A stretch of 64,000 bases of DNA from Zancudomyces culisetae HAW-14-8 (taxonomy: Eukaryota; Fungi; Kickxellomycota): assembly GCA_052426225.1 (NCBI GenBank), contig JBNJNM010000015.1:1798001-1862000 (forward strand), written 5' to 3'. The position numbers and the translations under genes were made by a program. The notes beneath the pieces are model-generated. The model saw only the letters and a list, made by a program, of their open reading frames with translations. It made no database searches and was not told where the DNA came from. Below are positions 42,061-64,000 of the stretch, piece by piece. How positions within the stretch are numbered: the first letter of the stretch is position 1; the number at the start of each line of letters is the position of its first letter.

Positions 42061-42099
42061 TATACAAACTTTGATTACAAAAAAAATATACCTATATAA
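41797..42099 (+). CDS. Hypothetical 100-aa protein (GC-richer island in AT-rich DNA)
   Basis: Protein-level conservation with the 40431 copy (RYSSDSDR, EPE..RD.F, RNPT.ER). Confidence 0.5.
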   Translation: MSGLMGHLRAAIIQRFKDEGRYSSDSDRSEATSMEIEPEASRDPFSFLEGVVQREMDSMRNPTKERGQSSHVRQYLINYLLNYFFNHKYTNFDYKKNIPI

Positions 42100-43324: not shown

Positions 43325-43396
43325 CGCCCGATGTGGGGGTCGAACCCACAGCCTTGAGGTTAAAAGCCTCACGCTCTACCATTGAGCTAACCGGGC
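43325..43396 (-). tRNA. tRNA-Lys (anticodon TTT), intronless
   Basis: GCCCGGTTAGCTCAATGGTAGAGCGTGAGGCTTTTAACCTCAAGGCTGTGGGTTCGACCCCCACATCGGGCG forms a full cloverleaf with A box, B box (GGTTCGACCC) and anticodon stem TGAGG/CCTCA. A T-rich terminator follows. Confidence 0.97.
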
Positions 43397-43405
43397 CGTT
43401 GATTG

Positions 43406-44001
43406 TGTTGAATTCGTTTTCATTTTTTAGTACTAGTCCAATAGGATTTTCCCAAAAAACTTCCACTAATATCAATCACGGTTCCCTAGAAGGGTGGTTA
43501 TTACTGACACAGGATTTACCATTTCTAGCCAGTTAACCACTATCTATAAAACCCCCTCGGAAAGAACACAACTGGACAATTTCCACAATTTTTGGTAAAA
43601 ATAATTTTATTTAAAAGAATTCCTCCCAAAACCTGGAAAATATAGCCAAAATGGCCCTTTCCTTACACTAAAAAAATAGTATTACGCCTCTCTATATATG
43701 TTTATTTTTACTTTTAGTGTGGTTTTGGTCGGATTTACAAATTTTTCAATTTATACTAATAATTTACTAATAAAATTGATTAAAAATAAATCCACTAATA
43801 AAGTATAAAATCGATTCGACTAAAAAATAAATCGATTTGTACTATTAAATTGGCTGTAAAATTGACAAAAATTTATGACATGGTCATAATTTTTGTACTC
43901 TAAATTGAATTGCGCAGGAAACAATTTTTTCAAAATTGATTTCTCTGCTATTTTGCTGCAATGAAAGCGGTAAATTTAAGTTGATGCTTTTGCATACAAC
44001 A
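43406..44001 (-). repeat. E1 3' LTR
   Basis: Direct repeat of 51388-51983 with no mismatch seen by eye. PPT GCTGGAGGGGGGAC (minus strand, ~44004-44017) is adjacent. Confidence 0.95.
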
Positions 44002-44030
44002 ATGTCCCCCCTCCAGCTTTCGCTCCGTGA

Positions 44031-47000
44031 TCAATTCCTGTATCTTCTGATCTTAGTTCTTAAAGAACTTGGAACTACTTCGGGGACCATTCTTTCTGAA
44101 TACTTGTAGGCCTTTAATCTATCGCCGTTCACTGTATCCATGTTTCCGTCTGGGTCTTTGATCAAATACACGCCTTTTGTGTAACACTTGATGATTTCGT
44201 AAGGACCTTCCCAGATTGGGTCAAACTTGCCTCCAGGTCCACTTATTCTTTTTAATACTAGGTCTCCTTCTTTGAACTGATAACGCTTTACCACTTTGTC
44301 GTATCTCTGCTTCATTACTGACTTTGACTTTGCGTTATTTTCCATAGCTTTTTCTCTCATCTTTGGAATACTGATCTGCACGACTCTCATTCTCTGTAAT
44401 ATCTCTTCCTCTAAGTTATCAATTTCAGCCGGCGGCATCCAAGTTGATGGTGTTTGCATTTTTACACCATATAACATCTCTGATGGACTGAACCCAGTAG
44501 ATCTGTTTTTCATTGATCTAACAACCAGTAGGGCTTTCCAAATATAACTATCCCAGTTGTCTCTGTCCATTACGCATATTTTTGCTAAGACATTCTTAAA
44601 TGTTCTATGAAATCTCTCGACTTGTCCGTTAGTCTGAGGCCTGAAAGCAGTAGTTGGTGTGTGTTTTATTCCCAACTGCTTGTATAACTCCGTAGTTATT
44701 TCTGATACAAATGAACTGCCTCTGTCTGAAATTAACTGAGTTGGTACTCCAAACTCCTGTACTACCTTACTTAATAGAAATTCTACGATGGTTTCTGACT
44801 GGAAATTTGTTACTGGTACCGCAATGGGCCACCTAGTAAAATAGTCTATCGCTGTGATGATAAATCTATTCCCAGATTTTGATATAGGGTTAATGGGTCC
44901 TACTACATCTATACCCATGATTTGGAATGGTGCAGGCGCAATTATCGGATGCATTTCCGTTCTTCTAAATTCGCCTTCTTCATATTTTTGGCACCGTTCG
45001 CATTCTTGTACCACTTCTTCTACAATTTTACGCAAGCCTCTTCCTACATATTTATTTTTCACTCTATTGAGAGTGTTTAGAATCCCTTCGTGTCCTTCTT
45101 CATGAATTTCTCTTATCATTAACTTAGCATTGTCGCTGTGTAACACTTCTCGGATTCCTGATTCCCTAGAGTACTTGCATACTTTACCGTTTACTAGTTT
45201 ATACGGCTTTGCTCTTTTTCTTAGCTTGGCTCTGAACTCCTCATCAGCTCGTAGCGGGTAGCTGAAATCTCTGAGGTAGTTCTCAATGGCTTTATGATGT
45301 AAGACATCGATTACCATTAGTTCCTCATACTTTGTTATCTTGTTTTCTTTTTCTCCGGTCTCTACGTTCCTGGATAAATAATCAGTAGGATTATTTGGAC
45401 CGCGGCAATGCTCCAATTCAAAGTCGTACTCTCTTAGGAACATGGCCCATCTAGCGACTCTTCCATTTAACTCTTGAGAATCAAAAACTTTTAACAATGC
45501 CATATGGTCGGTTCGAATCTTGAACCTCTTTCCCCACAGGTAGTGCTTAAACTTTTTGACTCCCCAAACTACTGCCAATCCTTCCAAGTGTGTGATTGAG
45601 TAGTTCTGTTCATGCCTGTTGTTTGTTCTACTGGCATATGCTATGGGTCTTTCTTCCCCATTTTGTACTTGAGATAGAATTGCCCCCAATCCAATTCCAG
45701 ATGCATCCGTTGTGAGTATAAATGCCTGTTCCCAATTTGGGTGTGCCAGAGTCGGTGCTTCTGTTAGTTTTTTAATTAGTGTTTTAACCGACTCTTCACA
45801 ACTTGCGCTCCAAGTCCAGGGTACGTCCTTCTTTAATAGCTCTGTAAGCGGCTTTACTATCAATGCGTATCCCTCTATAAATTTTCTGTAGTAACCTGTG
45901 AGCCCCAAGAACGATTGAATCTCTTTGACGTTCCTTGGTGCGGTTACTTTTTCCATGGCCTCTATTTTATCCTTGTTGGTAGAAATGCCATGTTTAGAGA
46001 CCGTATATCCCAGATACTTGATTTCGGTCTTTGCAAACTCACATTTTTCTTTGTGGAGTTGCACCTTGTGTTGCTTCAATAACTCAAACACTTCTCTAAG
46101 ATGTTGAGTGTGGTCTTCTGTGTTCTTTGAATAGATGATTATGTCATCTACAAACACAATAGCAAACTTCCAGAGTACTTTTGCCAGTACTCGTTCCATC
46201 ATCTTTTGGAATGTTGCCGGACTATTGCATAATCCAAACGGCATTACATTATAGCAATACATACCATCACCTGGTAATGCAAACGCGGTCTTGTGTTTAT
46301 CCGCGCTGTTCATACGTACCTGCCAGAATCCACTCATGGCATCGACTACACTGAATACTCCTGCTTCTCCGAATGCTGCCAGTATGTCGTCAATTATGGG
46401 TAGAGGATAAAGATCTTTTCTGGTAATCATGTTGAGTTTGCGGTAGTCAGAACAGATCCGAAGTTTTCCGTTTTTCTTTTTGACTACAACTACCGGTGCG
46501 CACCAGTCTGATTGACATGGCTCTATGATCCCTCTTTGTTCCATAATTTTTAGTTCTTCCCTCACCTGTTCCCTTAGGTGGTGAGCTATTCTGTATGGTC
46601 GCACTCTTACTGGGTTTGAATCTCCAGTATCAATACTGTGTTCCAACACATTTGTTTGCTGGAGTTCTAGCAAGTCATCCACGAATATCTCTGCATACTC
46701 TTTGAGCACTTCTGCAATATTTTCTGGTAGTTTTTCTTTCTGTTTGCGGTTATCGACTTCCTTGATCATCGAGTAGTATTCATACTCGTTTGTCTGTTTT
46801 GGACCATCTGTTTCAGTTATCATCAGTGAAACTACAACGTCCCCTTCTACCGTTGGTAAGAGCAGCTCCATGTTGCTCAAATCGATGTTGGCCTGGTGTT
46901 TCAGTAACCAATCTGCTCCCAACACCATCCTGTTTAATCCTCCTTCCATAACTACTAAATCTCCTGGGAAGATGAACCCTGCTATAACAAATGGAACATC

Positions 47001-48473
47001 TCTAATTATTCCCAGTGTCTCATGCTTGGTGCCATCAGCGGTTATGAGCATTGAGTGATCTTTTTGCTCAATTTTTAAACCTAACATGTCCATAAATTGC
47101 TCTGAGATTACTGAACATGCTGCACCTGTATCAATAACTGTGAGCTGGTGCTTTCCAAATACTTCAATGTAAGCTTTGCAGTTTGTGGTGGTTGTCCTAT
47201 CTTCTACAATGGTGTTCAGCTCCTTGGCTTCTATCTTCTTAAAGAGATCGACCAACTCTTTCCTGATTTCGGGTGAAGACTGTAACAGTTGACCAAGTGA
47301 AATATCTGGTTTTAATTTATCCAACTCTGAACCTATCGAAAACTTTTGAATGTTCTCCGATAGTCTAATATCCATTTTCTTCCTAACTCTTAGGGTAGCT
47401 GGTTTGATTACTGGCCCCGTCTTGTTAGGTTCCTTTTGTGCCACACGGATTTTTGCATGAGCTGGCTGAAAATCCATGCCATTGTTTTCGTCTCTCTTCC
47501 GTTTGTCCACTGCATAGAGTTCCGTATCTTTGTTTCCATCTGTTTTTCTTTCTATCTCTATGCAGTTAATTTCTTGTTTTTGGTCCTTCTGCCTCTTGTA
47601 GCACGCTGCGGCCTCATGCCCTGGCCTTTTGCAGTATGTACATTCCACTTTCTTGAACGGTCTTCTTGATTGTGGAGCAGACTTTTCAGAGTAATTTGGT
47701 CTCTTTTCTAATCTAGCTAGGAGATTAAGTGAAAGCTCGTCAAACTTTTTAATCAACGCCTCGTACATATCTGGACCCTCATTAGATTTATGTACCTTCA
47801 TCACCTTCCTACTAGTGCTTTTTGGTTTTTCTGATGTTTCCCTGACAGTAGGTAATATTTTCTCGACATCCTCTTCTGCCTGGATTATTGCTATGGCAGA
47901 TTTGACATCCTTAACTTTGGCTTTTAAAATTTGCCTTTGATACTTGGGGTTAAGAGCGTCTACAAAAAACTTAAGTCTGATCCGTTCGTCTTTAATATCG
48001 ACTGTTGAGACCAGTTTGCTGAACTCCGTCTCAAAATCTTCAAAGTCGAGGTAGTCACTTTGTTTAAGGCTTTGCAGTTGATTCCACGCTCGTGCCTCTC
48101 TGTCTTTACCTTCAAACTTTTCCAGGAATTCCTCACGAACCTTTTTCCATTTTTCTAGTTTAGACTTATTGATCTTGTACCATCGAAGGTCTTTCCCCGT
48201 TAAAAACAATTCTAAGAAATCAATCTTGTCTTTTTCCATCCAGCTGTTGATCCTAGCCATTAGCTCATACCTATCGAGCCATTCTTCCACGTTTGTAGTA
48301 GTGTTACTATCGAACATTGCTACATCTGGAATTCCTCTGTTGAACGTAAAGTTCATATTTAGAGGTATTCGGTCAGTTGTTGGTTCAGGAGCGCTCGTCT
48401 CCTGTACTTCGACCTCCTCTGATTCATCATCAGTAGTATCCTCTCTCAACTTTTCTGCTCTTTTACTAAACAT
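44031..48473 (-). CDS. E1 Gag-Pol polyprotein (Gag-CCHC, protease, RT, RNase H, integrase)
   Basis: CTYCKRPGHEAAAC, IDTGA, MPFGL...FVDD, TDASG, HHCC zinc finger, GIDVVGP...SDRG...GQVER, GPY. Domain order PR-RT-RH-IN is Ty3/Gypsy. Confidence 0.97.
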   Translation of the reverse strand: MFSKRAEKLREDTTDDESEEVEVQETSAPEPTTDRIPLNMNFTFNRGIPDVAMFDSNTTTNVEEWLDRYELMARINSWMEKDKIDFLELFLTGKDLRWYKINKSKLEKWKKVREEFLEKFEGKDREARAWNQLQSLKQSDYLDFEDFETEFSKLVSTVDIKDERIRLKFFVDALNPKYQRQILKAKVKDVKSAIAIIQAEEDVEKILPTVRETSEKPKSTSRKVMKVHKSNEGPDMYEALIKKFDELSLNLLARLEKRPNYSEKSAPQSRRPFKKVECTYCKRPGHEAAACYKRQKDQKQEINCIEIERKTDGNKDTELYAVDKRKRDENNGMDFQPAHAKIRVAQKEPNKTGPVIKPATLRVRKKMDIRLSENIQKFSIGSELDKLKPDISLGQLLQSSPEIRKELVDLFKKIEAKELNTIVEDRTTTTNCKAYIEVFGKHQLTVIDTGAACSVISEQFMDMLGLKIEQKDHSMLITADGTKHETLGIIRDVPFVIAGFIFPGDLVVMEGGLNRMVLGADWLLKHQANIDLSNMELLLPTVEGDVVVSLMITETDGPKQTNEYEYYSMIKEVDNRKQKEKLPENIAEVLKEYAEIFVDDLLELQQTNVLEHSIDTGDSNPVRVRPYRIAHHLREQVREELKIMEQRGIIEPCQSDWCAPVVVVKKKNGKLRICSDYRKLNMITRKDLYPLPIIDDILAAFGEAGVFSVVDAMSGFWQVRMNSADKHKTAFALPGDGMYCYNVMPFGLCNSPATFQKMMERVLAKVLWKFAIVFVDDIIIYSKNTEDHTQHLREVFELLKQHKVQLHKEKCEFAKTEIKYLGYTVSKHGISTNKDKIEAMEKVTAPRNVKEIQSFLGLTGYYRKFIEGYALIVKPLTELLKKDVPWTWSASCEESVKTLIKKLTEAPTLAHPNWEQAFILTTDASGIGLGAILSQVQNGEERPIAYASRTNNRHEQNYSITHLEGLAVVWGVKKFKHYLWGKRFKIRTDHMALLKVFDSQELNGRVARWAMFLREYDFELEHCRGPNNPTDYLSRNVETGEKENKITKYEELMVIDVLHHKAIENYLRDFSYPLRADEEFRAKLRKRAKPYKLVNGKVCKYSRESGIREVLHSDNAKLMIREIHEEGHEGILNTLNRVKNKYVGRGLRKIVEEVVQECERCQKYEEGEFRRTEMHPIIAPAPFQIMGIDVVGPINPISKSGNRFIITAIDYFTRWPIAVPVTNFQSETIVEFLLSKVVQEFGVPTQLISDRGSSFVSEITTELYKQLGIKHTPTTAFRPQTNGQVERFHRTFKNVLAKICVMDRDNWDSYIWKALLVVRSMKNRSTGFSPSEMLYGVKMQTPSTWMPPAEIDNLEEEILQRMRVVQISIPKMREKAMENNAKSKSVMKQRYDKVVKRYQFKEGDLVLKRISGPGGKFDPIWEGPYEIIKCYTKGVYLIKDPDGNMDTVNGDRLKAYKYSERMVPEVVPSSLRTKIRRYRN

Positions 48474-51367
48474 TTTGATTTTGTTGTTAAACTTTAAATA
48501 ATTGATAATTTTTTGTTATTTTGTAATTTTATAAATTTTATATTTTTATGTTTTTATGTTTAATTTTTTAACAATATTTTTATTATATATTATTTTATTA
48601 TAATAATTATTTTTTTTTTTTTTTTTATTTTTTTTTTTTTATTTATTTTTTTTTTTGTATTATTTATTGTTGTAGTTTAGTATTGTTTAGAAAACTTGTT
48701 AATCTGTTGAAAGTTGGATAAACTTTTAGATTTATAGGATTAAATTTCGATTTTGTTTGATTTGGAGTCTGATTTGATTTTTAGTATTTCGACTCAATTA
48801 ATTTAAATTTTTAATCTCTTTGCTGGTTTTGATTAGTTTTACTTTGTTTTAATTTGGACTGTGTCCCTGCTTTTTATCTGCTATGTTATTCTGACTTGTA
48901 TTCATAAATTTAATTCCCAATTTAAGTTACCAAAAGTTCAGTCAGTTTTGAAGTGATGAACAGTTTGGGTTTGATGTATTACCCAACTCCCGAACGGTTT
49001 GGAAGGGAGGACCTCCCCGCCCAAAAGATTGGACATCGGATTTGTTTTACCCCCATTTCATATTTCCACACTAGATCTTTCGAACGTTGGAGGGATTTAA
49101 TCTAGTGTAATAAAAGATTATTGAATTTAATCTTTTCAGTATGTTTCGGTTCCGAATAATATTAACTAGAAAGTAGAAACTAGTTAAATGATATTTACCG
49201 TTCTGAAGACGCGCCGCTCTAACAGAACTCATAAGACGACAATATTGTGCATCTTACCTTGGTACCACTATTGGGTTTGGTTGAAATAAATAATAAATTC
49301 TACCTCACCCTAGCCCCTTGGGAATGTTGAACTTACATCACCCAATTGACTGTAGAATACCTAGGAATTGACCTCCATGGTATCCTTTACTCTTGGAGTG
49401 CTTTGCTACTCCGTAATTGGTTATACTAAGACCCCCATCTAACTTATCTATCCTTATTTTGATAGAATGGTTAGGCCGGACAAAGAGAGTAAACCAGTTC
49501 TGCTCCTGTCCCATTAATGACGTAGGTTGATTCCTGCAGGGTTATCACCTCGTAAATATTTATCTCACCTTGTTAGCTACTCAAGGTGTAGAAAGGTCCC
49601 CAGAACTGAAAGTACTCTTACCACGTAGGTTGGAGGGTTTGGAATACTTCCGTTTGTTCTACCGAACCCAAGGTGTCCCTTTTTTGGGTACTACCATTTA
49701 CTGACTTACTGGGTAAACTTTTTAGTTTCCCGATAATATTAGGCTGATCTTGTTTAAATATTACTACCAAACCTAATACCAATTTAGTTCCATATTTTAC
49801 GGAACTTTACCACAAAATTCCTCCACCTGTTTCATTCACTCGGTTTTGGAATCGAGTATTTTATTACTCTTATAGTTTCTGGGTTAACTGGTAGGGTAGA
49901 AATTATTTCCCCAGTTATTTCCTTACTTAAAACCAATTAAAGAAAAAATTATTCCTTTAAAACCACCCAGGAAGTCTGATTCAGTTTCCCTAAATCTTGA
50001 AAAAGGATTTGGATAACTAACTTCAACTTCTCAAAACTTGGGAGTGTATCTGGAGATAGATACAGGATCTCCCTATTTAAAGTGTGAAGTTTATTTCTAC
50101 CTTTAAACTTCTTACACTTTTACTACTGGAGTTCAACTCCAGGTAGTTTCCCAGCAAAACTGTGGCCTAGAATAAGCTTGCATATAGCTCGCTTAAACTT
50201 ACCAAGTGACTTTAGTAGGTTGGTTAACTCTTACCTTCCCACTGTCACTGGTAGCTTTTCCCCACTTTAAGGATGTTATTCTTAAAGTTAGCTACAAAGT
50301 TGCCGGTCTAGTAACCTATGGTCGGGCTCCTAGACTCGGTGTAGTAAGAAAAAATTTGGATTTTTACATCCCATTATCCTCATTACTACTAGTGGCTTCT
50401 ACTAAGACTAAATGGCATTGCATTTAGTCCCTAGACGCCGGTGATATGGTGTAAAACCCGCCGCAGAAATCCCCAGTACTTCTCAAAGAAGTCCGTCTCA
50501 TTCCTGTTTTGAGCCCACCTTTGGTGACTTGTGTACATGTATTTTTAGGTTACTTACACATAATTTTGCTTTTCAGCAGTAAACCCCCAGTATCCATCTT
50601 TCTTCTCCCAAGTATTGGAAGGTCTCCGTACAGCTAGCATTAACGAAAATTAACTTTCTTTAGCTATCACCGTATCTAGGAGATTTCAATATTTGGGGAA
50701 TCCAGACGAACCCGTCTCGTTTCCGCTTCCAACCAAAAATATGCTTATCGGCCTAAAAACCCATAAACATTTACCACCAACACCTGGGAAGTATCCAAAA
50801 GTATGCGACATAACGCACATTTTGCTTCAACTCCCGCAGGTAACACAGCATTTTAAGCTGTTCTGGGAAAAGCTCCCAAAGCCATTTGTAGAATTTAACT
50901 GTTTGGAAATGTTCTATTAAACATAATTAATATCCCATGTCCCAATTTGTTTAATTCCCCAAAAGCCTAAAAAGAAAAGGTCGGGTAATGTGGGAAATTC
51001 AATTACATTTAGGCTGAAATGTAAATGAAACCCGAAAAAGTATTGAGAAAAATCTTAAAGGGAAAAATGTATTTAAAGCCAATGTTCCTAGCCCCACTGA
51101 AAGTGTTTTGCATTTACCAGCGCGAGTCCCTAAAAGGGCTTTCGTGGTTACCTTACCTGGTCCGGTGGTTCAGAGAATTTATTCCCTATTTAAAAGGAAC
51201 AAACCTCCTACTAGCCCACATTGGCCCCAGATGGTGTAAGGTCCAACTCGTCTCATAAATGGCTTCTAGGCGACATAGCCGAAGCTTTTACGGCAAATTT
51301 TTGGTCATTAGAAAGAAAATCTTTCTGACCAAAAATTTAACTTTTCTCCCAAATTCTCCTCATACCA

Positions 51368-51385
51368 TTCCCGGCAGAGCCCCCA
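51368..51385 (-). promoter_or_regulatory. E1 primer-binding site, probably for tRNA-Pro
   Basis: Minus-strand TGGGGGCTCTGCCGGGAA lies 2 nt inside the 5' LTR. It complements a tRNA 3' end ...TTCCCGGCAGAGCCC-CCA, similar to eukaryotic tRNA-Pro. Confidence 0.85.
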
Positions 51386-51387
51386 TT

Positions 51388-51983
51388 TGTTGAATTCGTT
51401 TTCATTTTTTAGTACTAGTCCAATAGGATTTTCCCAAAAAACTTCCACTAATATCAATCACGGTTCCCTAGAAGGGTGGTTATTACTGACACAGGATTTA
51501 CCATTTCTAGCCAGTTAACCACTATCTATAAAACCCCCTCGGAAAGAACACAACTGGACAATTTCCACAATTTTTGGTAAAAATAATTTTATTTAAAAGA
51601 ATTCCTCCCAAAACCTGGAAAATATAGCCAAAATGGCCCTTTCCTTACACTAAAAAAATAGTATTACGCCTCTCTATATATGTTTATTTTTACTTTTAGT
51701 GTGGTTTTGGTCGGATTTACAAATTTTTCAATTTATACTAATAATTTACTAATAAAATTGATTAAAAATAAATCCACTAATAAAGTATAAAATCGATTCG
51801 ACTAAAAAATAAATCGATTTGTACTATTAAATTGGCTGTAAAATTGACAAAAATTTATGACATGGTCATAATTTTTGTACTCTAAATTGAATTGCGCAGG
51901 AAACAATTTTTTCAAAATTGATTTCTCTGCTATTTTGCTGCAATGAAAGCGGTAAATTTAAGTTGATGCTTTTGCATACAACA
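51388..51983 (-). repeat. E1 5' LTR
   Basis: Direct repeat of 43406-44001, adjacent to the PBS. Confidence 0.95.
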
Positions 51984-52723
51984 ATTGTTGTAATTTTAGT
52001 TTGCAGAAAATTTCTCAGGAAATTTCCGCAACTAAACCTACAAAAAGTTCTGCTAATAGAGGGGGATTGTTACTGGAATAAGTTTTACTTTATTTAACCA
52101 GTCAACCCTACCTTTTTAGCTTATATTTAATTTAGTTTTATGTATTTATTACTTCAATAAATGCGATAAAACTGGGTAAAATTACGCCCAACTCCTAAAA
52201 TTTGGTGTGCAAAACAATTAATTTTGGTCCAAAAATTAGACTCTGATACCTTTCTGATACCCTTTGAAAATTGTGTTACGCTTCACTACCTATGTTTTTT
52301 TTTGGTTTTAGGTAGGTTTTTGCTCAAATCACAAATTTCAATTTTATAGAGTAAAATCAAGTATTTTAGAGCTAATTTGTATTTTATTTAATGAATAACT
52401 TTTAAAAATAAAAAGATAAAACCACCAAACTTGTGGTGAAGTTACTAGTAATATACTAGTACCTGACTAGCTATTTTATTAGAACTTTATATAATAGAAA
52501 CTTAAAATAAAATAATCAAAACTTAATATTGACTCACTTTTTGGGTGATAATTTCACCCTAGTAATCCCAGATTACTAGCTCGAACACCCGAGATAACGG
52601 TGGTTATTCGGTGTTTGAGAAGCTGTATGCTGTTTATCCAATAGTTTAGCTTGGATAGAACTAAGCATACAACACCTCCCCCCCACAGCTTACACTCAGG
52701 GTTTCAACCTTTGTGTGCAAGCT

Positions 52724-55700
52724 TTAATTCTTGAAGCGTCTCAAAGTGCTCCGAATATTCCCTGGCGTGATCTCGGGAATCATATGTTCTGCCTGGCGAT
52801 ATGGTTTAAGGCGGTCTCCATTAACCAAGTCACGGTGTCCTGCTGGATCTTGGATAACGTATGTGCCTAACCTAAGTACTCTGGTGACGGTATATGGTCC
52901 TTCCCAGTAGGGTTCCAATTTTCCTGAAGGCTGCTCAACTTTTCTGAGCACCTTGTCACCTTCCTTGAAACGGTAGACAGTTACTTGTTTGTCATACCTT
53001 TGCTTCATGACCTGGTTTGCCTCAGCCATTTTCTCAACTGCTAGGCGCCTTATCTCGGGGATACCAACTTGGATGGCGTTTACCCTTTGAATAATCTCTT
53101 CCTCGAGATCTTCCACTTCTGCAGGAGGTCTCCAAGTTGCTGGGGTTTGCAACTTTACTCCATACAGTAACTCTGCGGGGCTTTTATCTGTAGATCTGTT
53201 CTTCATAGTCCTGATGACTAACAAGACCTTCCAGATATAAGTATCCCACTCTTCCTTGTTTCTCTCAGAAACTTTGGCTAACACATTACGGAAAGTTCTA
53301 TGGAAGCGTTCCACTTGACCATTAGCTTGGGGACGAAATACGGTAGTTGGGGTGTGGTGAATCCCCACCTCTTCGTAAAACTTAGAGGACAATTCTGATG
53401 TGAATGATGCTCCTCTGTCAGACATAAGTTGTGCGGGTATACCGAACTCTTGCACCACTTTGGTGAACAAGAAGTTAATCACAACTTCCGAAGTAGCATG
53501 TGGCACCGCCACAGCAATTGGCCACTTCGTCAAGTAGTCTATCGCAGTTATGACATACTTGTTGCCTGATTTTGCTATAGGATTTATAGGTCCTACAAAG
53601 TCAATCCCCATTATTTCAAACGGTCGCATGGCTAGGAAAGGATGGAGCGGCTCTCTAAAGAATTTACCTTTATCTTGTTTTTGGCAACGCTCACATTCTC
53701 CTACAACTTCCTCAACTACCTCTCGCAACCCTTTACCGAAGTACTTGTTTCGGGCGCGATTCAGGGTATAGAGTATTCCTTCATGACCTTCTTCGTGAAT
53801 CTCCCGGATTTTCTCCTTTTGATTCTCATGGTGAAGTACTTCCCTTATCCCAAACTGCTTTGTTACTTTGCATAACTTATTATCCAGCAGCTTGAACAAC
53901 TTAGCCTTTTCCCGAAGGCTTTTCCTGAAGTCGTCATTAGCTCTGTTTGGGTAAGTTCTATCCCTTAGGTAGTTGGAAATAGCTGCGTGATGTAACACAT
54001 CCATCGCCGCTATTTCTACTTCCTCGGCCTCTGCTCCTGGGGCTACTTCTTCCGTGATTCCTGGATTTCTTGACAGGAAATCAGTAGGGTTTACAGCACC
54101 CCTAACATGTTGGAATTCGTAGTCAAACTCCCGCAGGAACATTGCCCATCGTGCTACTCTGCCATTTAAGTCCTGGGTGTCAAAGACCTTTAGTAATGCC
54201 AAATGGTCTGTCTTCACCACAAACTTTTTCCCCCAAAGGTAGTGTTTAAATTTCTTTATTCCCCACACTACCGCAAGGCCTTCCAAATGAGTAATAGCAT
54301 AGTTGGCTTCATGAATGTTTAGGGTGCGACTGGCGTAAGCTATTGGGCGTTCTTCGCCGTTTATTTCTTGTGTTAAGATAGCTCCCAGTCCGACCCCAGA
54401 GGCATCCGTGGTCAGGATAAATTCCCTGTCCCAATTGGGATGTGCCAGTGTAGGAGCTTGAGTGAGCAGTCTCTTTAGCTCCCGCACCGCCTCTTTACAT
54501 TCTTCAGACCACTCCCAAGAGACATCTTTCTTTAGGAGGTTTGTCAACGGTCTGGCCACTAACGCATAGTTAGGTATAAACTTCCTATAGTACCCAGTGA
54601 ATCCTAAGAAGGATTGTATTTCTTTAACATTTCTTGGGTCTATTAGAGTGTTTATACTCACTATTTTATCCTCATTTGTACTTATACCATTCTTACCAAT
54701 GGTATGCCCCAAGTAACGAATCTCGGTCTTGCCGAATTCGCACTTATCTTTGTGCAATTGCACTTTACCCTTCCTGAGACATTCAAAAACTTCTTCTAAA
54801 TGTCCCTTGTGTTCCTCCCAGGTCTTGGAGTACACAATTATGTCGTCGATAAACACAATTGCACAACGCCATAAAACATTTGCCAACACTTTCTCCATCA
54901 GTTTCTGGAATGTAGCGGGACTGTTGCAAAGTCCAAAAGGCATAACGTTGTAACAGTACATTCCATCTCCTGGTAGAGCGAATGCTGTTTTGTGTTTATC
55001 TGCGGGATTCATTTTGACCTGCCAAAACCCGCTCATAGCGTCCATTACGCTAAAAACCCCTGCATTCCCAAATGCCGCAAAGATATCATCAATTATTGGC
55101 AATGGGTACAGATCCTTGCGGGTAACTAAGTTAAGTTTACGGTAATCTGAGCAAATTCTCAACTTCCCGTTCTTCTTAGTTACCACCACTACTGGGGCGC
55201 ACCAATCGGACTGGCAGGGCTCAATTATGCCTTTCTCTGCCATTACCTCCAGTTCCCCTCGCACCTGCTCCCGTAGATGGTGCGGAATCCTGTAAGGGCG
55301 AACCTTCACCGGATTGGCGTCTCCAACCTCAATGCGGTGGTCCAAAACATCGGTCTGTTCTAGATCCATAAGATCAGTCACAAACAGATCCTTATTCTTT
55401 TCCAGCACATTGAGGAGCCCCTGGGGTACTTCTGGTGCCACTTCAGATGTTGAAGTTGACACCTCCTTTGCTATCCCGTAGAGTTCGTACCCCGAATAAT
55501 CTACGAGGTTGCTTTTCTTGCTCGTAAAGAGTGTCAAAGCAATCTCCTTGTCGCCCTTGGGTAATATTAATTCTTTACCGCCCAAGTCGACCATAGCACC
55601 ATGTTTAGTCAACCAGTCCATGCCTAAGACTAGCTGATTAATACCCCGCTCCATGACCAACAGATCTCCAGTAAAGATGTACCCAGCGATTCTGAAAGGT

Positions 55701-57262
55701 ACACCCGAAACTATTCCAAGTGTGGAATGTTTCGCCCCATCTGCTGTCACTATAGTGGGCGTATCCATAGTGTCTATTTCCAAACCCAGCATTTTTAGGA
55801 AGTCGTTGGTGACTACTGAGCAGGCTGCTCCAGTATCTAGGATAGCAACGTGGTATTCACCAAAGACGTCGATGTACGCTTTACAGTTTGTATAACGACT
55901 ACCTTCATCTTCAATGGCTCCCAACTCTTGCTCCTCCAACTTTTGGATGTATGTTAACATCCTCTTCCTAACCATTGGGGAAACCTTGAGGAGGTGGGCA
56001 TAGTTTAACTTTGGTTGAATCCTGTTAAACTCATCCTCAATGGAAAACTCCTTTATTGGGAGTTCTTCCTTGTCCCCAGGTGTCTGGCGAGTTTTCCCAG
56101 TCGCCGCACCTCTCTCGCGTACTATAGCTGCTTTATCAGCTAAGTAGCGTTTTGTTTTAGAGTTGGTTTCCGTCTGGAAAGAGAACCTGTCTTTCGCAGG
56201 GTTTCTCGGAACCACTCGTATTGCCTGAGGTGGATTTTGGTCTTTTTCGACCTCCATACCAACCTCCCTAATCTCTCCGGTAACCTGTCCCGGAGGATTT
56301 TCTCCTGTCCTAACTCTACCCCTTACAGGGCCGTTGTCTGTTGGGGAGGGGCTTCTGGGCCTTTTCTCCACTCCAAACAACGCTTCCGCCTCTGAGTCGG
56401 ACATCTCAGAGCATAGCTCAATACAGCCTAAGTCTTTCGACCCTCCAGCTGCTTCAGGACATTGTGTCCCATGGTGCCCAGGCTTTTTACACTTGAAGCA
56501 CTCCAGGATTCTTGGCTTGAAGTCTCTCTGGGGTTTCCTATTGTTTCCCCCATGAGATTTGGCCTCAAGCTTTTCCATCCTGTCGAGAATGTTGAGTTGC
56601 AAACCTTGCATATACTTCAACGTTCTCTGTAATTCCCCAGCAAAGTTTTCCTTCAGCGAAGTATCCGCTTTTGGAGGACTTTGCTCTTTCTTTTCTACCT
56701 TTGCGGGTGCTCTGGTTTTCTTTGGTGCCGAAAGATTCAGAGCCTTCTCGAGTTTTTCTTCCTCGAGGAGTTTCTCCTTAGCTTCCTTTACCTTAGTAAT
56801 CCCAGCCTTAGAAAGAAGGACTTGATTCCTTTGGGTGAGTGCTCTCCGAAAGAGATTCATCCAAGTCTTCGAATCCTCCTTAATACCCGCAGCATTAGCC
56901 AAACTATCAAACTCGGCTTCGAAAAGCTCAAAGTTTTTAAAGTTTGCTTGCCGCAAATCTATCAGGGTTTCCAATGCCGTTAACTCAGTTTCTTGAGTAC
57001 CGAACTGCTCCAGGAATTTCTTGGAAGCGGCTTCCCAGGTTGTCAAAGTTGACAATTGCCTTTTAAACCACTTTTTGTCCTCCCCGGATAGGTACAGCTC
57101 AAGATACTTGAGTTTTTCTGCATCATTCCACCCATACATAGATGAAATTAAACCGTAAGTATGCAACCAGTCCTCAACATCGGGACAGTTTGCGCTATCA
57201 AACGGAGTAATTTCTGGACCCCCGCGGTTAGATATCACTTTTTTACCAGTGTTCCCAACCAT
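52724..57262 (-). CDS. E2 Gag-Pol polyprotein
   Basis: CFKCKKPGHHGTQC, LDTGA, FIDD, TDASG, HHCC, GIDFVGP...SDRG...GQVER, GPY. Confidence 0.97.
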   Translation of the reverse strand: MVGNTGKKVISNRGGPEITPFDSANCPDVEDWLHTYGLISSMYGWNDAEKLKYLELYLSGEDKKWFKRQLSTLTTWEAASKKFLEQFGTQETELTALETLIDLRQANFKNFELFEAEFDSLANAAGIKEDSKTWMNLFRRALTQRNQVLLSKAGITKVKEAKEKLLEEEKLEKALNLSAPKKTRAPAKVEKKEQSPPKADTSLKENFAGELQRTLKYMQGLQLNILDRMEKLEAKSHGGNNRKPQRDFKPRILECFKCKKPGHHGTQCPEAAGGSKDLGCIELCSEMSDSEAEALFGVEKRPRSPSPTDNGPVRGRVRTGENPPGQVTGEIREVGMEVEKDQNPPQAIRVVPRNPAKDRFSFQTETNSKTKRYLADKAAIVRERGAATGKTRQTPGDKEELPIKEFSIEDEFNRIQPKLNYAHLLKVSPMVRKRMLTYIQKLEEQELGAIEDEGSRYTNCKAYIDVFGEYHVAILDTGAACSVVTNDFLKMLGLEIDTMDTPTIVTADGAKHSTLGIVSGVPFRIAGYIFTGDLLVMERGINQLVLGMDWLTKHGAMVDLGGKELILPKGDKEIALTLFTSKKSNLVDYSGYELYGIAKEVSTSTSEVAPEVPQGLLNVLEKNKDLFVTDLMDLEQTDVLDHRIEVGDANPVKVRPYRIPHHLREQVRGELEVMAEKGIIEPCQSDWCAPVVVVTKKNGKLRICSDYRKLNLVTRKDLYPLPIIDDIFAAFGNAGVFSVMDAMSGFWQVKMNPADKHKTAFALPGDGMYCYNVMPFGLCNSPATFQKLMEKVLANVLWRCAIVFIDDIIVYSKTWEEHKGHLEEVFECLRKGKVQLHKDKCEFGKTEIRYLGHTIGKNGISTNEDKIVSINTLIDPRNVKEIQSFLGFTGYYRKFIPNYALVARPLTNLLKKDVSWEWSEECKEAVRELKRLLTQAPTLAHPNWDREFILTTDASGVGLGAILTQEINGEERPIAYASRTLNIHEANYAITHLEGLAVVWGIKKFKHYLWGKKFVVKTDHLALLKVFDTQDLNGRVARWAMFLREFDYEFQHVRGAVNPTDFLSRNPGITEEVAPGAEAEEVEIAAMDVLHHAAISNYLRDRTYPNRANDDFRKSLREKAKLFKLLDNKLCKVTKQFGIREVLHHENQKEKIREIHEEGHEGILYTLNRARNKYFGKGLREVVEEVVGECERCQKQDKGKFFREPLHPFLAMRPFEIMGIDFVGPINPIAKSGNKYVITAIDYLTKWPIAVAVPHATSEVVINFLFTKVVQEFGIPAQLMSDRGASFTSELSSKFYEEVGIHHTPTTVFRPQANGQVERFHRTFRNVLAKVSERNKEEWDTYIWKVLLVIRTMKNRSTDKSPAELLYGVKLQTPATWRPPAEVEDLEEEIIQRVNAIQVGIPEIRRLAVEKMAEANQVMKQRYDKQVTVYRFKEGDKVLRKVEQPSGKLEPYWEGPYTVTRVLRLGTYVIQDPAGHRDLVNGDRLKPYRQAEHMIPEITPGNIRSTLRRFKN

Positions 57263-57662
57263 TTTTTAGTAGTATAAACTAACTACTTTAATAATAGTTC
57301 TTCCCGTAACTTGTTCGGAACTTTTAACTTTTTATATTTTTAATTGGGAGTTTTCTCGGAAAAATATCTCCGCAAAAGGAATAGTACCAATTTACTATTA
57401 TTCCTAGCCTTCTGCTAATATTTCTGAGGTATAACTACCCAAAATTAATGTTTCCTGCAGGAAAAACTCCTGGTGAAACTTTTAATTAATATTAATTTTT
57501 TTGGTAACTTTAGTCGCTGACTAGTTACCTTTCGCACCCGAGAAACTGTGGTATTTCACCCAGAATTCTCCAGATATATTTTAATACTTATAAAATAATC
57601 CTTTAGCAGCTTAATTGCTGACTAGAGTGGTTATTGCGGGACTTCCCAAGTGTTTTGGTAGT

Positions 57663-57680
57663 TTCCCGGCAGAGCCCCCA
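57663..57680 (-). promoter_or_regulatory. E2 primer-binding site (identical to E1, tRNA-Pro-like)
   Basis: Plus-strand TTCCCGGCAGAGCCCCCA, 1 nt from the LTR at 57682. Confidence 0.85.
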
Positions 57681-58375
57681 CTGTTGTAATTTTAGTTTGC
57701 AGAAAATTTCTCAGGAAATTTCCGCAACTAAACCTACAAAAAGTTCTGCTAATACAGGGGGATTGTTACTGGAATAAGTTTTACTTTATTTAACCAGTCA
57801 ACCCTACCTTTTTAGCTTATATTTAATTTAGTTTTATGTATTTATTACTTCAATAAATGCGATAAAACTGGGTAAAATTACGCCCAACTCCTAAAATTTG
57901 GTGTGCAAAACAATTAATTTTGGTCCAAAAATTAGACTCTGATACCTTTCTGATACCCTTTGAAAATTGTGTTACGCTTCACTACCTATGTTTTTTTTTG
58001 GTTTTAGGTAGGTTTTTGCTCAAATCACAAATTTCAATTTTATAGAGTAAAATCAAGTATTTTAGAGCTAATTTGTATTTTATTTAATGAATAACTTTTA
58101 AAAATAAAAAGATAAAACCACCAAACTTGTGGTGAGGTTACTAGTAATATACTAGTACCTGACTAGCTATTTTATTAGAACTTTATATAATAGAAACTTA
58201 AAATAAAATAATCAAAACTTAATATTGACTCACTTTTTGGGTGATAATTTCACCCTAGTAATCCCAGATTACTAGCTCGAACACCCGAGATAACGGTGGT
58301 TATTCGGTGTTTGAGAAGCTGTATGCTGTTTATCCAATAGTTTAGCTTGGATAGAACTAAGCATACAACATGTTT

Positions 58376-58911
58376 TGTTGTATAATTACATGTTTAACGT
58401 CCTACTGAGTAATATAATTACCCAGTATTATACAGGACGGGACTTTTATTAATATATATTAGGACTATAATTATTTTGGGAGAAAAAGACAATTTATTAA
58501 TTAATTCAAAACTAGACTATTTAATGCATAAAATAATACTATTTAAATTAACCAATAAAATACAAGGAAATACAGGTATATATTTCTACTATATAACAGT
58601 TTGTGTAATATTTAAAATTTATATTATATTACCCGTTATGGGTGCACAGTGTCAATACACTAGTTACTTCCTTCACGGATAGTGTTTAAGCTCACCGTTT
58701 ATGTTAATAACTGAATTTTGTGTAGACACTTGTTATATTTTACTATTGTAGTTTATTTTTTATGATATACTTAATAAAAATTGATAATAATGTTTTTCTT
58801 AAAACTAGAAATCCAAACTCCTATATAAAAGTAATGATAACACGAACTTGTTATCAAGGAAGTAGGAAAAAACCCTCCTAGGGAGAAAAGTCCAATCTTC
58901 CCAATAAAATG

Positions 58912-58967
<56 letters not shown>

Positions 58968-59429
58968 ATGACTCATTAATAAATTACCTAACCAATTTCT
59001 GACAAGGGGTAATCCATCCATTTCTATATGACATTTGACGGCATTTAATTTTTCCTTGTCGCTTTTACCCGACTTTACCGCCTTAACAAGTATTTTGAAA
59101 GTTTATACTATAATCTAATAACTACCTGAAGACGGTAGGACCCAGATTCAATGGCTTAATGTGTTTATTTTTGATTATAAACTAAAGAAAAAAGATACTG
59201 AATTCAGTAGGTCAGATACTTAGCCTTATATCTGATCTCTCATATTTTAAATAAACTAACTATATTATAACTATATAAGAAACATTGATAAAATTAATAT
59301 AAAATTAATATAAAAATTAATAGAGATTTACACGGGAAAAACCTCATAGGTGAAAAACACCGTGTAAGTCTTTGCACATCACACGAAAGCACCCGTGTGA
59401 TGTACATCCTGTCGCTCATTGATGCGACA
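58376..59429 (-). mobile_element. Probable solo LTR (E3), 1054 bp
   Basis: TGTTG...CGACA ends flanked by a perfect 5-bp direct repeat TGTTT (58371-58375, 59430-59434). The terminus ATGCGACA is shared with the E4 LTR. Confidence 0.75.
58912..58966. repeat. (AAT)n microsatellite inside the solo LTR
   Basis: About 18 perfect AAT units read directly. Confidence 0.95.
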
Positions 59430-59868
59430 TGTTTTGTTAGCGAAACACAGGTTTACTTCGGTATTTTGAATATTATATATTTATTTTGATAGAAATACTA
59501 TACTAAGTACTATGTTTAAAATTGTTTTCACTATAGTAACTATGCTAAAACAAATAGACCAAATTTAAATAAACTATATTTATTTGATGATGTAATACTA
59601 AGTGAATATCTAGCCATATTTATACATTTTAAAAATGACTATTACAATATTCTGAAATAATTTTATACTAATTAAATAAAAATCCTATAAAATATATTTA
59701 AATTGAACTAGAGTGTTGCTGTAGAAAAAATCCAGAAGGATAAAAAAACTAGGCAGCACATAATATAATAAATAACCTATAATAAATAATATCTTATATT
59801 AAATGATAAACCTAAATATTAATATAAAAGTATATGAATAACTGGTAAGTTAAAATTATATAATGACT

Positions 59869-60252
59869 TTAGGTAGCTCTAGCCACTATATAACAGTTTG
59901 TTATGTCGTAATAATCATAATTCGGGAGATCATGATTATTATGTTCATCACGTGTCATACCAGTTCGGGTATGACCACTTGATGAGGATGCACCACTACC
60001 CCGTAGTGTGATGTGCATATAGGGGTGCTCGGGTGAGCTATTTCCCCTGTACAATGTCGGTGAGATGCTGCTCACGGACATTGGTTCTGGGCTCCTACGG
60101 ATTTGGAGTTGACGGACACTTTCTGTCAACTCCCCAAGAGTCCGAGGGCTTAGAACCCCGGTCTCTTGGTCCATGCTACTAGCCGTACTCAGACTGGAGC
60201 TAGTTTCTGAATCCCTCTTGGATTCGCTTTTACTATAAAAGAAATAGTTCAT
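59869..60252 (-). CDS. Ser-rich 127-aa hypothetical protein inside the inferred E4 LTR
   Basis: GC-richer open frame with AAAAATG context in very AT-rich flanks, on the same strand as the element. No recognised domain. Confidence 0.45.
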   Translation of the reverse strand: MNYFFYSKSESKRDSETSSSLSTASSMDQETGVLSPRTLGELTESVRQLQIRRSPEPMSVSSISPTLYRGNSSPEHPYMHITLRGSGASSSSGHTRTGMTRDEHNNHDLPNYDYYDITNCYIVARAT

Positions 60253-60734
60253 TTTTGGTTATTGGTTATTATCAATAATATTCTGAAGTTTGTTTTATTG
60301 TGTTTAAATAAATATACTATTTAATCCGTAGAGTAGAACATGGATGAGGTTTTTCCATTTCCCTCTTCTTGTTCCTTAAATATAAATTTCTATTAAACTG
60401 CTACTATCTTCAAAACGTTTAAATTACTATTACTTATGTACTATAAGAACTATATGACTTTATACTGACTTCCTCTACATATTTTACTTATGTAGTGAAT
60501 GTTGAATTAGGTGTTGGGAACACCTAATAATTATTATCTAATTTAGGATTTAGTATGAAGACATTTTTCATACTAAATTCTATCATTATTGAGTCGACTC
60601 AGCATGTAGAATTAATTTCATACTGTGTCGCTCATTTTCCAAATTGAATTTCATGCAGATACAAAAATTTAATTTTCATTCTGCGATGAGTGTACTTCAA
60701 TTTGTACTACAATTGTACTTAAGTGTACAATTGC

Positions 60735-63700
60735 TCACTCATGCGACATTTCCCCACTTAATTCTTGATCGTCCTCGATCATCTTATCTTCTGTAGGCTG
60801 TTTCATGGATATTGCGCCAGTTGTTCGAGCACTGCCTGTGTATAGGTCTGGTATGATTTCGTATTCGGGGTAATATTTTCTCAATCTGTCCACATGTACT
60901 TTATCAACGTTACCCGCTCTGTCTATTATTTCATATATCCCGTTACCTAGGTTTTTAATTACTTCGAATGGTCCGACGTTCCTGTGCATTGTAAAAGGGT
61001 TACGGGTTGCCGTGGCTTTAAGTACTTGTTCCCCTATTTCGAATACCCTTGGTCGTACCCCTTTGTTGTACCTATTCTCTTCATATGCTTTTTGTTTTTT
61101 GGCTAACTCAATCGACAACTGTCTGTATGTTGGTATTTCCTTCTCCAGAAACTCTAGTCTAGTACGAAGCGCAACTTCCTTTTCAAGGTCCTTTGGTATT
61201 TCACTACTCCATATTTCCGGAGTAAGCAGTTTTAAACCATATACTACCTCCGCTGGCGATCTTCCAAGACTTTTGTGAATTGTTGTCCTCATTGTTAGCA
61301 GTGTGCGCCATATGTATGCGTCCCAGTTCTCCGGTCTGCTAATTGTTTGTTTGATTAGTAATTGTTTTAAAGTTTGAATAGACCGTTCAACTTGTCCGTT
61401 TGATGATGGCCTATACGCCGTCACCGGTTTTTGTTCGATCCCCAAAAACTCATTGAATCTTGCACAAGCCTCATTGCTTAAGTGTGTTCCTCGATCTGTG
61501 ATTAATATTTTCGGTACTCCAAAGTTCGCTATGATCATCTCCGTTATGAAGGTACATATTACTTCGGCGTTTATTGCTTTTACTGCTAGTGCTACGGGCC
61601 ACTTTGTGAAATAATCCACTGCTACAATTATGTATTATTTCCTTCGGGTTTTGTTATGGGATTCATAGGACCTGCTACATCCAGCCCCCATACCTTAAAC
61701 GGTTCACTTGGAATAATTGGGTGTAATCTTTCAGCTTTTCGTTGGCTATAGTTAGTTCGTTGGCACACTTCGCAGCGTTCACAGATTAGTTTCACCATTG
61801 GGTAACTATTAGGAGCGTAATAGTGTTCGCTCAGGTATCGGTACGTTGCAACTGCGTTTCGGTGTTGTTCGTAGTGGATTCTATATATTGTTTCGTGCAA
61901 CTCATTTGGGTGTAAGTATTTCCTCTTTACTTTGTCGTTATGTATAATGGTATCTCCTTGTAAGGCTAACTTTGATATCAGTTTGTCGCCTTTTGTTGTG
62001 TCATTTATAGCTATATTATATTTTATCTTGTTTTTCAACTCCTCATATCCTTTAACAGAAATGTATAACACTTCTTCAATCTGCTCTGGTATATCCTCCC
62101 AGGGAAATCTGCTTAAGTAGTCTGCCGGGTTTGTTTTCCCTTCCCGGTGTATAACATCAAAGTCGTAATGCCTAAGTTTTAACACCCATCTACCGATTCG
62201 GCCTTTTACTGGTTCCTTTTTGAACAGCTCTACCAGCGCGCTATGGTCAGTAATAACGGTAAATTTTCTTCCATATAAATAGTAGTGGAAGTGTGTTAGC
62301 GCCCAGACGACTGCTAACCCTTCTAGGTGTGTAATACTGTAATTTGATTCTGCTGGCGAAAGTGTCCTGCTAGCATAACATATTACACCTTCCTTGCCTT
62401 CTGCTCCTTGTGCCAATATGGCACCTAGGCCCGCGGTTGATGCATCCGTTATTACTGTGAAGTCCTTGTTCCAGTCCGGGTGGTTGAGTATTGGTCGATT
62501 TATTAGCTGATTCTGGAGGTATTCATATGCCTGTTGTTGTTCGGCGCCCCATTTATAGTTTACGTTTTTCTTTGTTAACGTTGTTAGCGGCTTCGCAATA
62601 GCTGAAAAATTTTTTATGAATTTTCTGTAGTACCCGACTAGTCCTAAGTAACTTCGAATCCCATCTACATCCTTAGGTGGTACTAAGGTTTTCACTTTTT
62701 GAATGTTCTCAGTGTCCGGTTTTATTCCTTGTGCACTAATCGTGTGTCCTAAATATTTTACTTCCGTGTACCCTATCCTACACTTTTCTGCATGTAATTT
62801 AATGTTATTAGCTTTTAGCAATTCTATTATTCTACATACATCTTGTATATGTTCATTAAACGATTTAGAATAAATTATAATATCGTCAATGTACACCATG
62901 ACGCATCTGTGTAATTCGCTTTTCAGTACGTCCTCCATCACTCTTTGAAATATGGATGGAGCATTCGTCAGACCGAATGGGAGTACAGTAAATTGGAATA
63001 ACCCTAGGCCTGGGCCAGGTGTGAAGGCAGTCATTTCTTGGGTAACACGATCGAGTGGTATTTGCCAATACCCACTAAGCGCATCAAGTGTAGAAAAGTA
63101 CTTTGCACCTTGTAGATTACTGAGTATTTCGTCAATATTCGGAATTGGGTAAGCATCTTTTCTTGAAATATCATTCAACTTTCGGTAGTCAACACATATT
63201 CTCTTTTTCCCGTCCTTTTTATTAACTACTACCATAGGGAAACAGTATGGACTGTTCGATTTTATGATAACACCCTGTGTCTCCATTTCTGCTATTTGGT
63301 TCATGACTTCCTCCTGTAATCTTTTCGCTAGTCGGTATGGTTTGCAATGAATCGGTTTTGGGTCGAGTAATTCAATTATTACCGGTTCAACCTTGGCTCT
63401 ACGAAATTCTTCTAGATCATGAGCAAACTCATCCTCATTATCCCTTATCACCGCCTTAAGTTGCTGCTTTTGATGCTCTTCTAACTGTTGGTTAATGATC
63501 ATGCCTTGGTTATCTATCAGGTTTACTGCCAAAATGGTTTTTGTCGGTTCTGTATTGCCATCCTGTCTTAAGATTAAAGGTACTTCATGTACTCTCCCTT
63601 TTATGTTGCAGTACATTATATTTTTCTCCATATTTATATGTGCTTTTAAACATGCAAATAGGTCTACTCCCAATAGTAGAAGATCCGGTTTTCCCTGCTT

Positions 63701-64000
63701 GATTGAGTATATTGGTATGCAAACACTAAATGTATCGAATGTTATTTGTACTGATGGATAGTACCGTGGTTTGGAATGGTTTCCTTCCACTCCAACAATA
63801 GTCACAGTTGTTTCTTGCCCTTTGCCTAAATTCAGTCTTCTAGCCATTTCGCTGCTCATCAGATTGGTGGCTGCTCCACTGTCATATTGAAATCTTGTAC
63901 TTATGTTATTTACTTTGACACTACCCATTATGGCGGTTATCTTATTACTCATCTCTCTTTGCGAAACTACTGGATGCTTAATGCCTTGTTCCTTTATCTC
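60735..64000 (-). pseudogene. E4 pol (PR-RT-RH-IN) split by a 1-nt frameshift in integrase near 61635. The frame stays open to the window edge
   Basis: YDSGA, LPFGL, YIDD, TDAS, WGLDVAGP. The sequence GGA AAT AA- TAC ATA ATT GTA GCA GTG GAT TAT restores GNxYIIVAVDYFTKW if one base is added. Confidence 0.85.

Follow-up and report, generated by a model that had tools for sequence, protein, structure and literature searches.

Our analysis of a 64-kb window of DNA from the insect-gut fungus Zancudomyces culisetae (the window being the whole stretch analysed) reveals seven long terminal repeat (LTR) retrotransposon insertions or remnants arrayed head to tail upstream of a transfer RNA (tRNA) gene, tRNA-Lys(TTT), which is the only tRNA gene found in the window by ARAGORN and Rfam. 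The stack contains two full Ty3/gypsy elements (E1 and E2), four units resembling solo LTRs (S1 to S4) and a third coding element (E4). We consider it very probable (roughly 0.85) that the stack was built by several Ty3/gypsy families aimed at the RNA polymerase III (Pol III) start site, with the newest unit always nearest the gene, with a tether other than a chromodomain, and with some units later reduced to solo LTRs. E1, E2 and E4 are all oriented as the tRNA gene is and represent different families (protein identity is 52% between E1 and E2, and 37% for E4), so that the feature common to them is the site and not their mutual homology. From the gene outward, the stack reads as follows.

43325-43396, minus strand: tRNA-Lys(TTT), the anchor, called by ARAGORN and by Rfam (RF00005, 72.3 bits), its 5' end towards the stack
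43397-43405: spacer of 9 nt, with the near copy of the E1 duplication ATTG at 43402-43405 and, on the tRNA strand, a CAA at -5 to -3
43406-44001, minus strand: E1 3' LTR, 596 bp, TG..CA, without a mismatch to the 5' LTR
44031-48473, minus strand: E1 gag-pol, a single unbroken open reading frame (ORF) of 1480 aa encoding gag, protease, reverse transcriptase, RNase H and integrase
48474-51387, minus strand: E1 leader, 2.9 kb, lacking a long ORF; primer-binding site at 51368-51385
51388-51983, minus strand: E1 5' LTR
51984-51987: far copy of the E1 duplication, its last two bases being the first two of the E2 LTR
51986-52674, minus strand: E2 3' LTR, 689 bp
52724-57262, minus strand: E2 gag-pol, a single unbroken ORF of 1512 aa
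57682-58370, minus strand: E2 5' LTR, differing from the 3' LTR at two positions; TGTT follows at 58371-58374, and the primer-binding site is at 57663-57680
58376-58598, minus strand (as judged from its end): S1, 223 bp, duplication GTTT, 7/8 terminal inverted match
58604-59033, probably minus strand: S2, 430 bp, (AAT)21 tract at 58903-58965, duplication TTTG; the far copy at 59034-59037 includes the TG of S3
59036-59429, probably minus strand: S3, 394 bp, duplication TGTT; 14/16 match between one of its ends and that of the E4 LTR
59435-59895, probably minus strand: S4, 461 bp, duplication GTTT; 10/10 and 19/25 match between one of its ends and S1
59896-59903: far copy of the S4 duplication, then GTTA, the predicted near copy of the E4 duplication; the far end of E4 lies beyond the window
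59904-60748, minus strand: E4 3' LTR, 845 bp, with a 5-bp terminal inverted repeat (TGTCG..CGACA)
60735-64000, minus strand: E4 pol (protease, reverse transcriptase, RNase H, integrase), lacking one base near 61635, free of premature stops and continuing past the window edge

The strongest support for serial insertion comes from the target duplications. We peeled the units off stepwise from the tRNA side and then read the spacer and flanks, which gave a 9-nt spacer with ATTG/ATTG for E1, 7 nt with TGAT/TGTT for E2, 8 nt with GTTT/GTTT for S1, 9 nt with TTTG/TTTG for S2, 7 nt with TGTT/TGTT for S3, 8 nt with GTTT/GTTT for S4, and a spacer of 12 nt for E4. All seven joints at this one locus therefore fall 7-12 nt from the tRNA gene, and the six visible duplications are all of 4 bp, five of them exact and one with a single mismatch, none extending to 5 (by chance an exact 4-mer would match with a probability of about 0.006, and one with a mismatch of about 0.07). 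From newest to oldest the spacers also run 9, 7, 8, 9, 7, 8; this recurrence of the register could be due to chance (about 1 in 27, given three registers) or may instead be set by the family or by the preceding spacer.

The order of insertion can be read directly at two junctions. The E1 duplication (43402-43405 and 51984-51987) includes the TG of the E2 LTR, which starts at 51986, as the original prediction had it, and the S2 duplication likewise includes the TG of S3; E1 thus arrived after E2 and S2 after S3, with the newer unit on the tRNA side both times. At the other four junctions the premise of anchoring to the tRNA is needed, because a duplication lying wholly between two units reads alike in either order. 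This premise is well supported, since all joints lie within 7-12 nt of the gene and since an opposite sequence of events would require insertions to strike, time after time and at a distance of kilobases, precisely the outer border of the preceding element. We infer a full order, from oldest to newest, of E4, S4, S3, S2, S1, E2 and E1, so that the newest-nearest order proposed earlier is retained (directly at two junctions, elsewhere with the anchoring assumption), and the inventory of four elements that went with it is replaced by one of seven units. The symmetry of the duplications between units is also consistent with the site being determined by its local sequence or by the ends of LTRs already present, a T/G-rich hot spot copied by each duplication, rather than by the tRNA, in which case the order beyond the two direct junctions would be unreadable. 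All of the duplications do come from one short T/G-rich motif, and identical spacer states twice led to the same register. However, a motif of 4-5 nt cannot yield seven hits at one site in a genome given as about 27 Mb (PMC12611240), the newer unit is on the tRNA side at both direct junctions, and the deeper, older copies of the motif show no reuse that departs from the tRNA-side chain, and we judge such a hot spot to be distinctly improbable.

The seven-unit inventory depends on how the 1.5 kb beyond E2 is divided. It had been proposed that 58376-59429 is a single solo LTR of 1054 bp with a 5-bp TGTTT duplication abutting an E4 LTR of 1314 bp, and TGTTT does flank this interval on either side. 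Instead we find three units with 4-bp duplications, whose internal junctions tile exactly; the TGTTT at 58371-58375 and at 59430-59434 represents overlapping 4-bp duplications in adjacent registers, and the second copy abuts S4 (59435-59895), the E4 LTR starting only at 59904. That boundary is set independently by P0121, a protein related to E4. Its similarity ends exactly at 59904, where TGTCG and the opposite end of the LTR make up an inverted repeat of 5 bp, and because of these two coinciding limits we take the E4 LTR to be 59904-60748 and 59435-59895 to be a separate unit. The N-terminus of P0121 matches a frame within the supposed 1314-bp LTR (62% over 60 aa), and at 59904 the protein reads D-M-A, which, judging from the codons, fits the LTR end followed by the TGG of the primer site. 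The frame concerned has 129 codons (59869-60258, minus strand) and overlaps the E4 3' LTR, its part from 60081 being 62% identical to the P0121 N-terminus up to the LTR end. In the E4 family the beginning of gag may thus lie within the 5' LTR, with the frame crossing the primer site; as P0121 is a computed gene model without a reverse transcriptase, we are unsure of this suggestion. In Ty1, gag likewise begins inside the 5' LTR.

The ends of the units support the same division. The sequence CTATATAACA, with which S4 ends, is seen again at 58598 and, altered at one position, at 59033, and nowhere else in the 64 kb; in the form CTATAT[AG]ACA, this 10-mer thus occurs three times in the window, always at unit ends. 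By terminal likeness the units fall into three classes: E1/E2 (10/10), S1/S2/S4 (9-10/10) and S3/E4 (14/16). S1 to S4 each have TG..CA ends with a terminal inverted match and an intact flanking duplication, with no internal domain, and from these ends and duplications are inferred to be solo LTRs. Lone units of this kind (TG..CA, a 4-bp direct repeat and at least 5/8 inverted matches) are common, at 7-21 per 2.4 kb in eight control stretches and 10 in the stack region, and because of this frequency the evidence lies in the gap-free tiling and the shared ends, not in any single unit. When the interior was shuffled and the last junction kept, chains of 2, 3 and 4 units were reached in 149, 3 and 0 of 20,000 shuffles, respectively. 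A 15-bp mini-unit at 58376-58390 was rejected, as no TG start follows it.

With regard to how the site is chosen, the six tRNA-side duplication ends (-6, -4, -5, -6, -4 and -5, from newest to oldest) cluster around the C at -5, and the predicted E4 end, at -9, falls on a second CAA. In yeast Ty3, which is tethered by TFIIIB, the duplication is described as ending within about 1 nt of the C in the CAA start motif (PMC6673722), and all six ends here do the same. The integrases match that of Ty3 (PDB 7Q5B) as far as the SH3-like C-terminal fold; the E4 integrase model is predicted with a mean predicted local distance difference test score of 84 and is disordered after residue 261. In Ty3, a chromodomain at integrase residues 446-511 is reported to contact Brf1 (bioRxiv 10.1101/2021.07.27.453949). 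The integrase tails after the GPY/F motif are here only 58, 58 and 79 aa long, against about 139 in Ty3, and contain no Chromo match in Pfam at E values up to 1. Because such short tails leave no room for a chromodomain, tethering would have to use another surface, and an SH3-TBP contact as in Ty3 or a Tfc4 contact as in DGLT-A may be considered candidates. We propose that the integrases of several families would be tethered through such a surface to the Pol III initiation complex (TFIIIB/TFIIIC) and aimed at its start site, each newcomer landing beside the gene and displacing older units outward. The internal promoter and the CAA at -5 to -3 would survive each event and, as they persist, the target would renew itself. 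S1 to S4 would then have been reduced by recombination between their own two LTRs, which would leave the duplication intact. We had also considered that every LTR end recreates a TCAACA start motif, and dropped the idea, as just 3/7 end in CAACA.

Several observations weigh against this model. Targeting is seen at one locus only; two CAAs within 12 nt make proximity to within 1 nt of the C weakly discriminating; and the joints, at 7-12 nt, lie closer to the mature tRNA than is given as typical of Ty3-type elements (15-17 nt; PMC5014426). The 81 related loci that we collected (2 viral, 79 metagenomic) have no credible adjacent tRNA, with a single doubtful intron-containing call by ARAGORN and no blastn match to the window; these loci, from a metagenome scan covering 2 of 64 parts and only 27-42% identical in their best segments, are too distant to bear on targeting. 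The real 1.5 kb admits three tilings under general chain rules (of 1, 3 and 4 units), and the rules used (at least 100 bp, spacer 7-12 nt) were fixed after the data had been seen. S1 to S4 match nothing else in the window beyond their terminal 10-25 nt, contain no internal direct repeat except the microsatellite, and are not clearly more alike internally than their shuffles. The weakest link is the E2 duplication, for which the predicted pairing of a reconstructed TGAT with TGTT was borne out as a 3/4 match (chance 0.07), and a substitution there is unexpected at an LTR divergence of 0.3% (P 0.01-0.04). A recombinant E2 is therefore a minor rival, in which a crossover or conversion within this element would have fused the tRNA-Lys/E1 flank of one locus with the S1-E4 units of a different tRNA locus. 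Such an event would account for both the mismatched duplication and the two E2 LTR mismatches, and the existence of a 99% identical E2 relative means that the family offers recombination partners. It requires, however, that the 3/4 match arose by chance, and the reconstructed 7- and 8-nt spacers on either side of E2 fit one continuous series. We find it unlikely; it is in any case compatible with tRNA targeting, and would break the single time series at E2.

Serial targeting of the Pol III start site would place these elements near several known ones. Ty3/gypsy elements at tRNA 5' ends include Tj1 of Schizosaccharomyces japonicus, Tca8/beta of Candida albicans, Tyl3, Tyl6 and Ylt1 of Yarrowia lipolytica and DGLT-A of Dictyostelium (PMC5911963), and Table 1 of that paper lists tRNA-targeting gypsy elements from ascomycete yeasts and dictyostelids only, a distribution with which PMC7175516, PMC5006619, PMC5014426 and PMC4600332 agree. 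For Tj1, 13/17 inserts are reported within 12 bp (PMC4600332), and DGLT-A, which is described as contacting Tfc4, has like E1 and E2 one long ORF (PMC6101501). Those hosts are ascomycetes and amoebae, whereas the host here belongs to the Harpellales, fungi of insect guts. The stack differs from Ty3 in its duplications (4 bp in 6/6 visible cases, against 5 bp), in the single gag-pol ORF of E1 and E2, in the presence of many families at one site, and in its integrase tails, and we conclude that its elements work like Ty3 and are not Ty3 proper. The concept of a newest-nearest tandem is not new, since it has been published for TRE5-A of Dictyostelium discoideum, where a new copy is described as landing at a fixed distance in front of the old one, and where such tandems have been shown experimentally, with new insertions reported at 91/98 occupied tRNA genes (PMC5391098). 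TRE5-A shares the logic of the present stack, but TRE5 elements are non-LTR, lie about 50 bp upstream in the opposite orientation and have no solo-LTR stage. The consulted parts of the literature on the tRNA-targeting gypsy elements named above describe no seven-deep chain resolved by its duplications. The words LTR, tRNA, retrotransposon and gypsy do not occur in the main text of the Z. culisetae genome paper (PMC12611240), and a literature search that took in few subscription papers returned no report of ordered LTR stacks, or of tRNA targeting in Harpellales or other zygomycetes. A likeness to CRISPR arrays had also been suggested. These grow by spacer addition at the leader end, and have a constant repeat, a host acquisition machinery and a processed read-out. 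The geometry is indeed shared, since both extend in one direction from a fixed anchor and duplicate a short sequence with each addition. The analogy does not extend to function: the stack lacks a constant repeat and a host acquisition machinery, its units are self-mobile, its duplications vary in sequence and register, Rfam finds only the tRNA in the window, and we see no indication of the array being built or read by the host or having a host function.

Pfam places gag, protease, reverse transcriptase, RNase H and integrase in Ty3/gypsy order in E1 and E2, both of which retain a TG..CA LTR pair, primer-binding site, polypurine tract and target duplication; the gag of E4 lies beyond the window, which holds only its 3' LTR and purine tract from this set of end features. 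The E4 pol runs through the purine tract and ends inside the LTR (60735-60758). E1 and E2 have an identical 18-nt primer-binding site in spite of LTRs that share only an 80-bp patch at 74%. This site shows no complementarity to the neighbouring tRNA-Lys, and a pattern search for the primer tRNA in viral contigs gave no match; the primer may be a proline tRNA. The E1 leader, from primer site to gag, is much longer than that of E2 (0.42 kb) and holds no frame above 88 codons wholly inside it. It has no Pfam match in five frames and no Rfam match, and three candidates for an element nested in it were at chance level. The E2 polyprotein is 99.2-99.8% identical to the Z. culisetae protein P0011. 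In a midpoint-rooted tree of 45 integrase regions, the best 45 of 191 with at least 300 aligned residues and without a Ty3 row, the window elements group with Harpellales proteins (16 rows, 100/99); the number of targeting origins is not readable from this tree. We give almost no credence to an assembly artefact in which repeats of several loci were concatenated. The break in E4 pol, which is next to an AA pair, may be an error of sequencing, yet mis-joins would not yield five exact duplications between unrelated LTRs or leave ORFs of 1480, 1512 and 2065 aa unbroken. Assembled contigs of one DNA run gave seven pieces on 36000-44000, one on the E1 LTR and none spanning the joint between tRNA and LTR, and are not used as evidence.

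The original prediction further held that decay increases with distance from the tRNA. Several of its individual observations were confirmed: exact alignment gives identical E1 LTRs (596/596) and exactly two differences between the E2 LTRs, at 52059/57755 and 52440/58136; E4 pol has one frame break near 61635, where P0121 reads through; and the microsatellite is present, within S2. These mismatch counts and the position of the sole break, in the farthest element, would suit the reading in which four elements decay with distance. No gradient beyond chance emerges from them, however. The mismatches (0/596 against 2/689) give a Fisher P of 0.50, with overlapping intervals of 0-0.62% and 0.04-1.05%; a single break in 12.2 kb of coding sequence falls in E4 by length alone with P 0.27; the (AAT)21 tract has no reference copy for comparison, and E1, the youngest element, itself holds a 47-nt T-rich run. 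Moreover, E4, putatively the oldest, is less reduced than the four solo units that lie closer to the tRNA, and its 3,267 coding nt are free of premature stops (P 0.18, 0.034 and 0.006 at 1, 2 and 3% neutral divergence). Combined with the exact tiling and the E4 boundary, these results make the distance-dependent reading very unlikely. The absence of a visible gradient would follow if the series is young, and it is likely that the whole series is: six later insertions and four reductions would then have taken place within about 2-3% substitution at most, unless gene conversion refreshed E4.

Elsewhere in the window, the product of a host gene (7121-7984) shows 99% identity to a Z. culisetae protein (3 differences in 287 aa), and an exact-sequence look-up of nine window proteins in a protein collection matched none (0/9). 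Downstream of the tRNA, 39980-40651 and 41319-42018 form a decayed direct duplication (71% over a 390-bp core) with a broken coding-like stretch, unlike the LTRs of the stack. An ORF of 739 aa at 27939-30158 (minus strand) has a likely signal peptide, Cys-rich repeats, a long Thr/Ser/Val repeat and no Pfam match, and looks like a mucin-type surface protein.

We regard as real an unusually deep and clean case of LTR elements inserting one after another at a tRNA anchor, in a lineage of fungi from which we found no report of one: seven events in readable order, and four reductions to solo LTRs, over a span of no more than a few percent of point mutation. Targeting in the Harpellales that involves 4-bp duplications and lacks the Ty3 chromodomain would suggest that the targeting problem has been solved in one more, independent way. 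It seems an even bet that the Harpellales harbour a clade of Ty3/gypsy elements that find Pol III start sites in a manner of their own, without a chromodomain and common to many divergent families, and that tRNA genes genome-wide carry ordered, base-resolved logs of the activity of each family. If such stacks are general, they would order the activity of families and measure their turnover without LTR-divergence clocks, and if a clade of this kind exists, the pace of insertion relative to that of solo-LTR formation and of point mutation would be directly readable.

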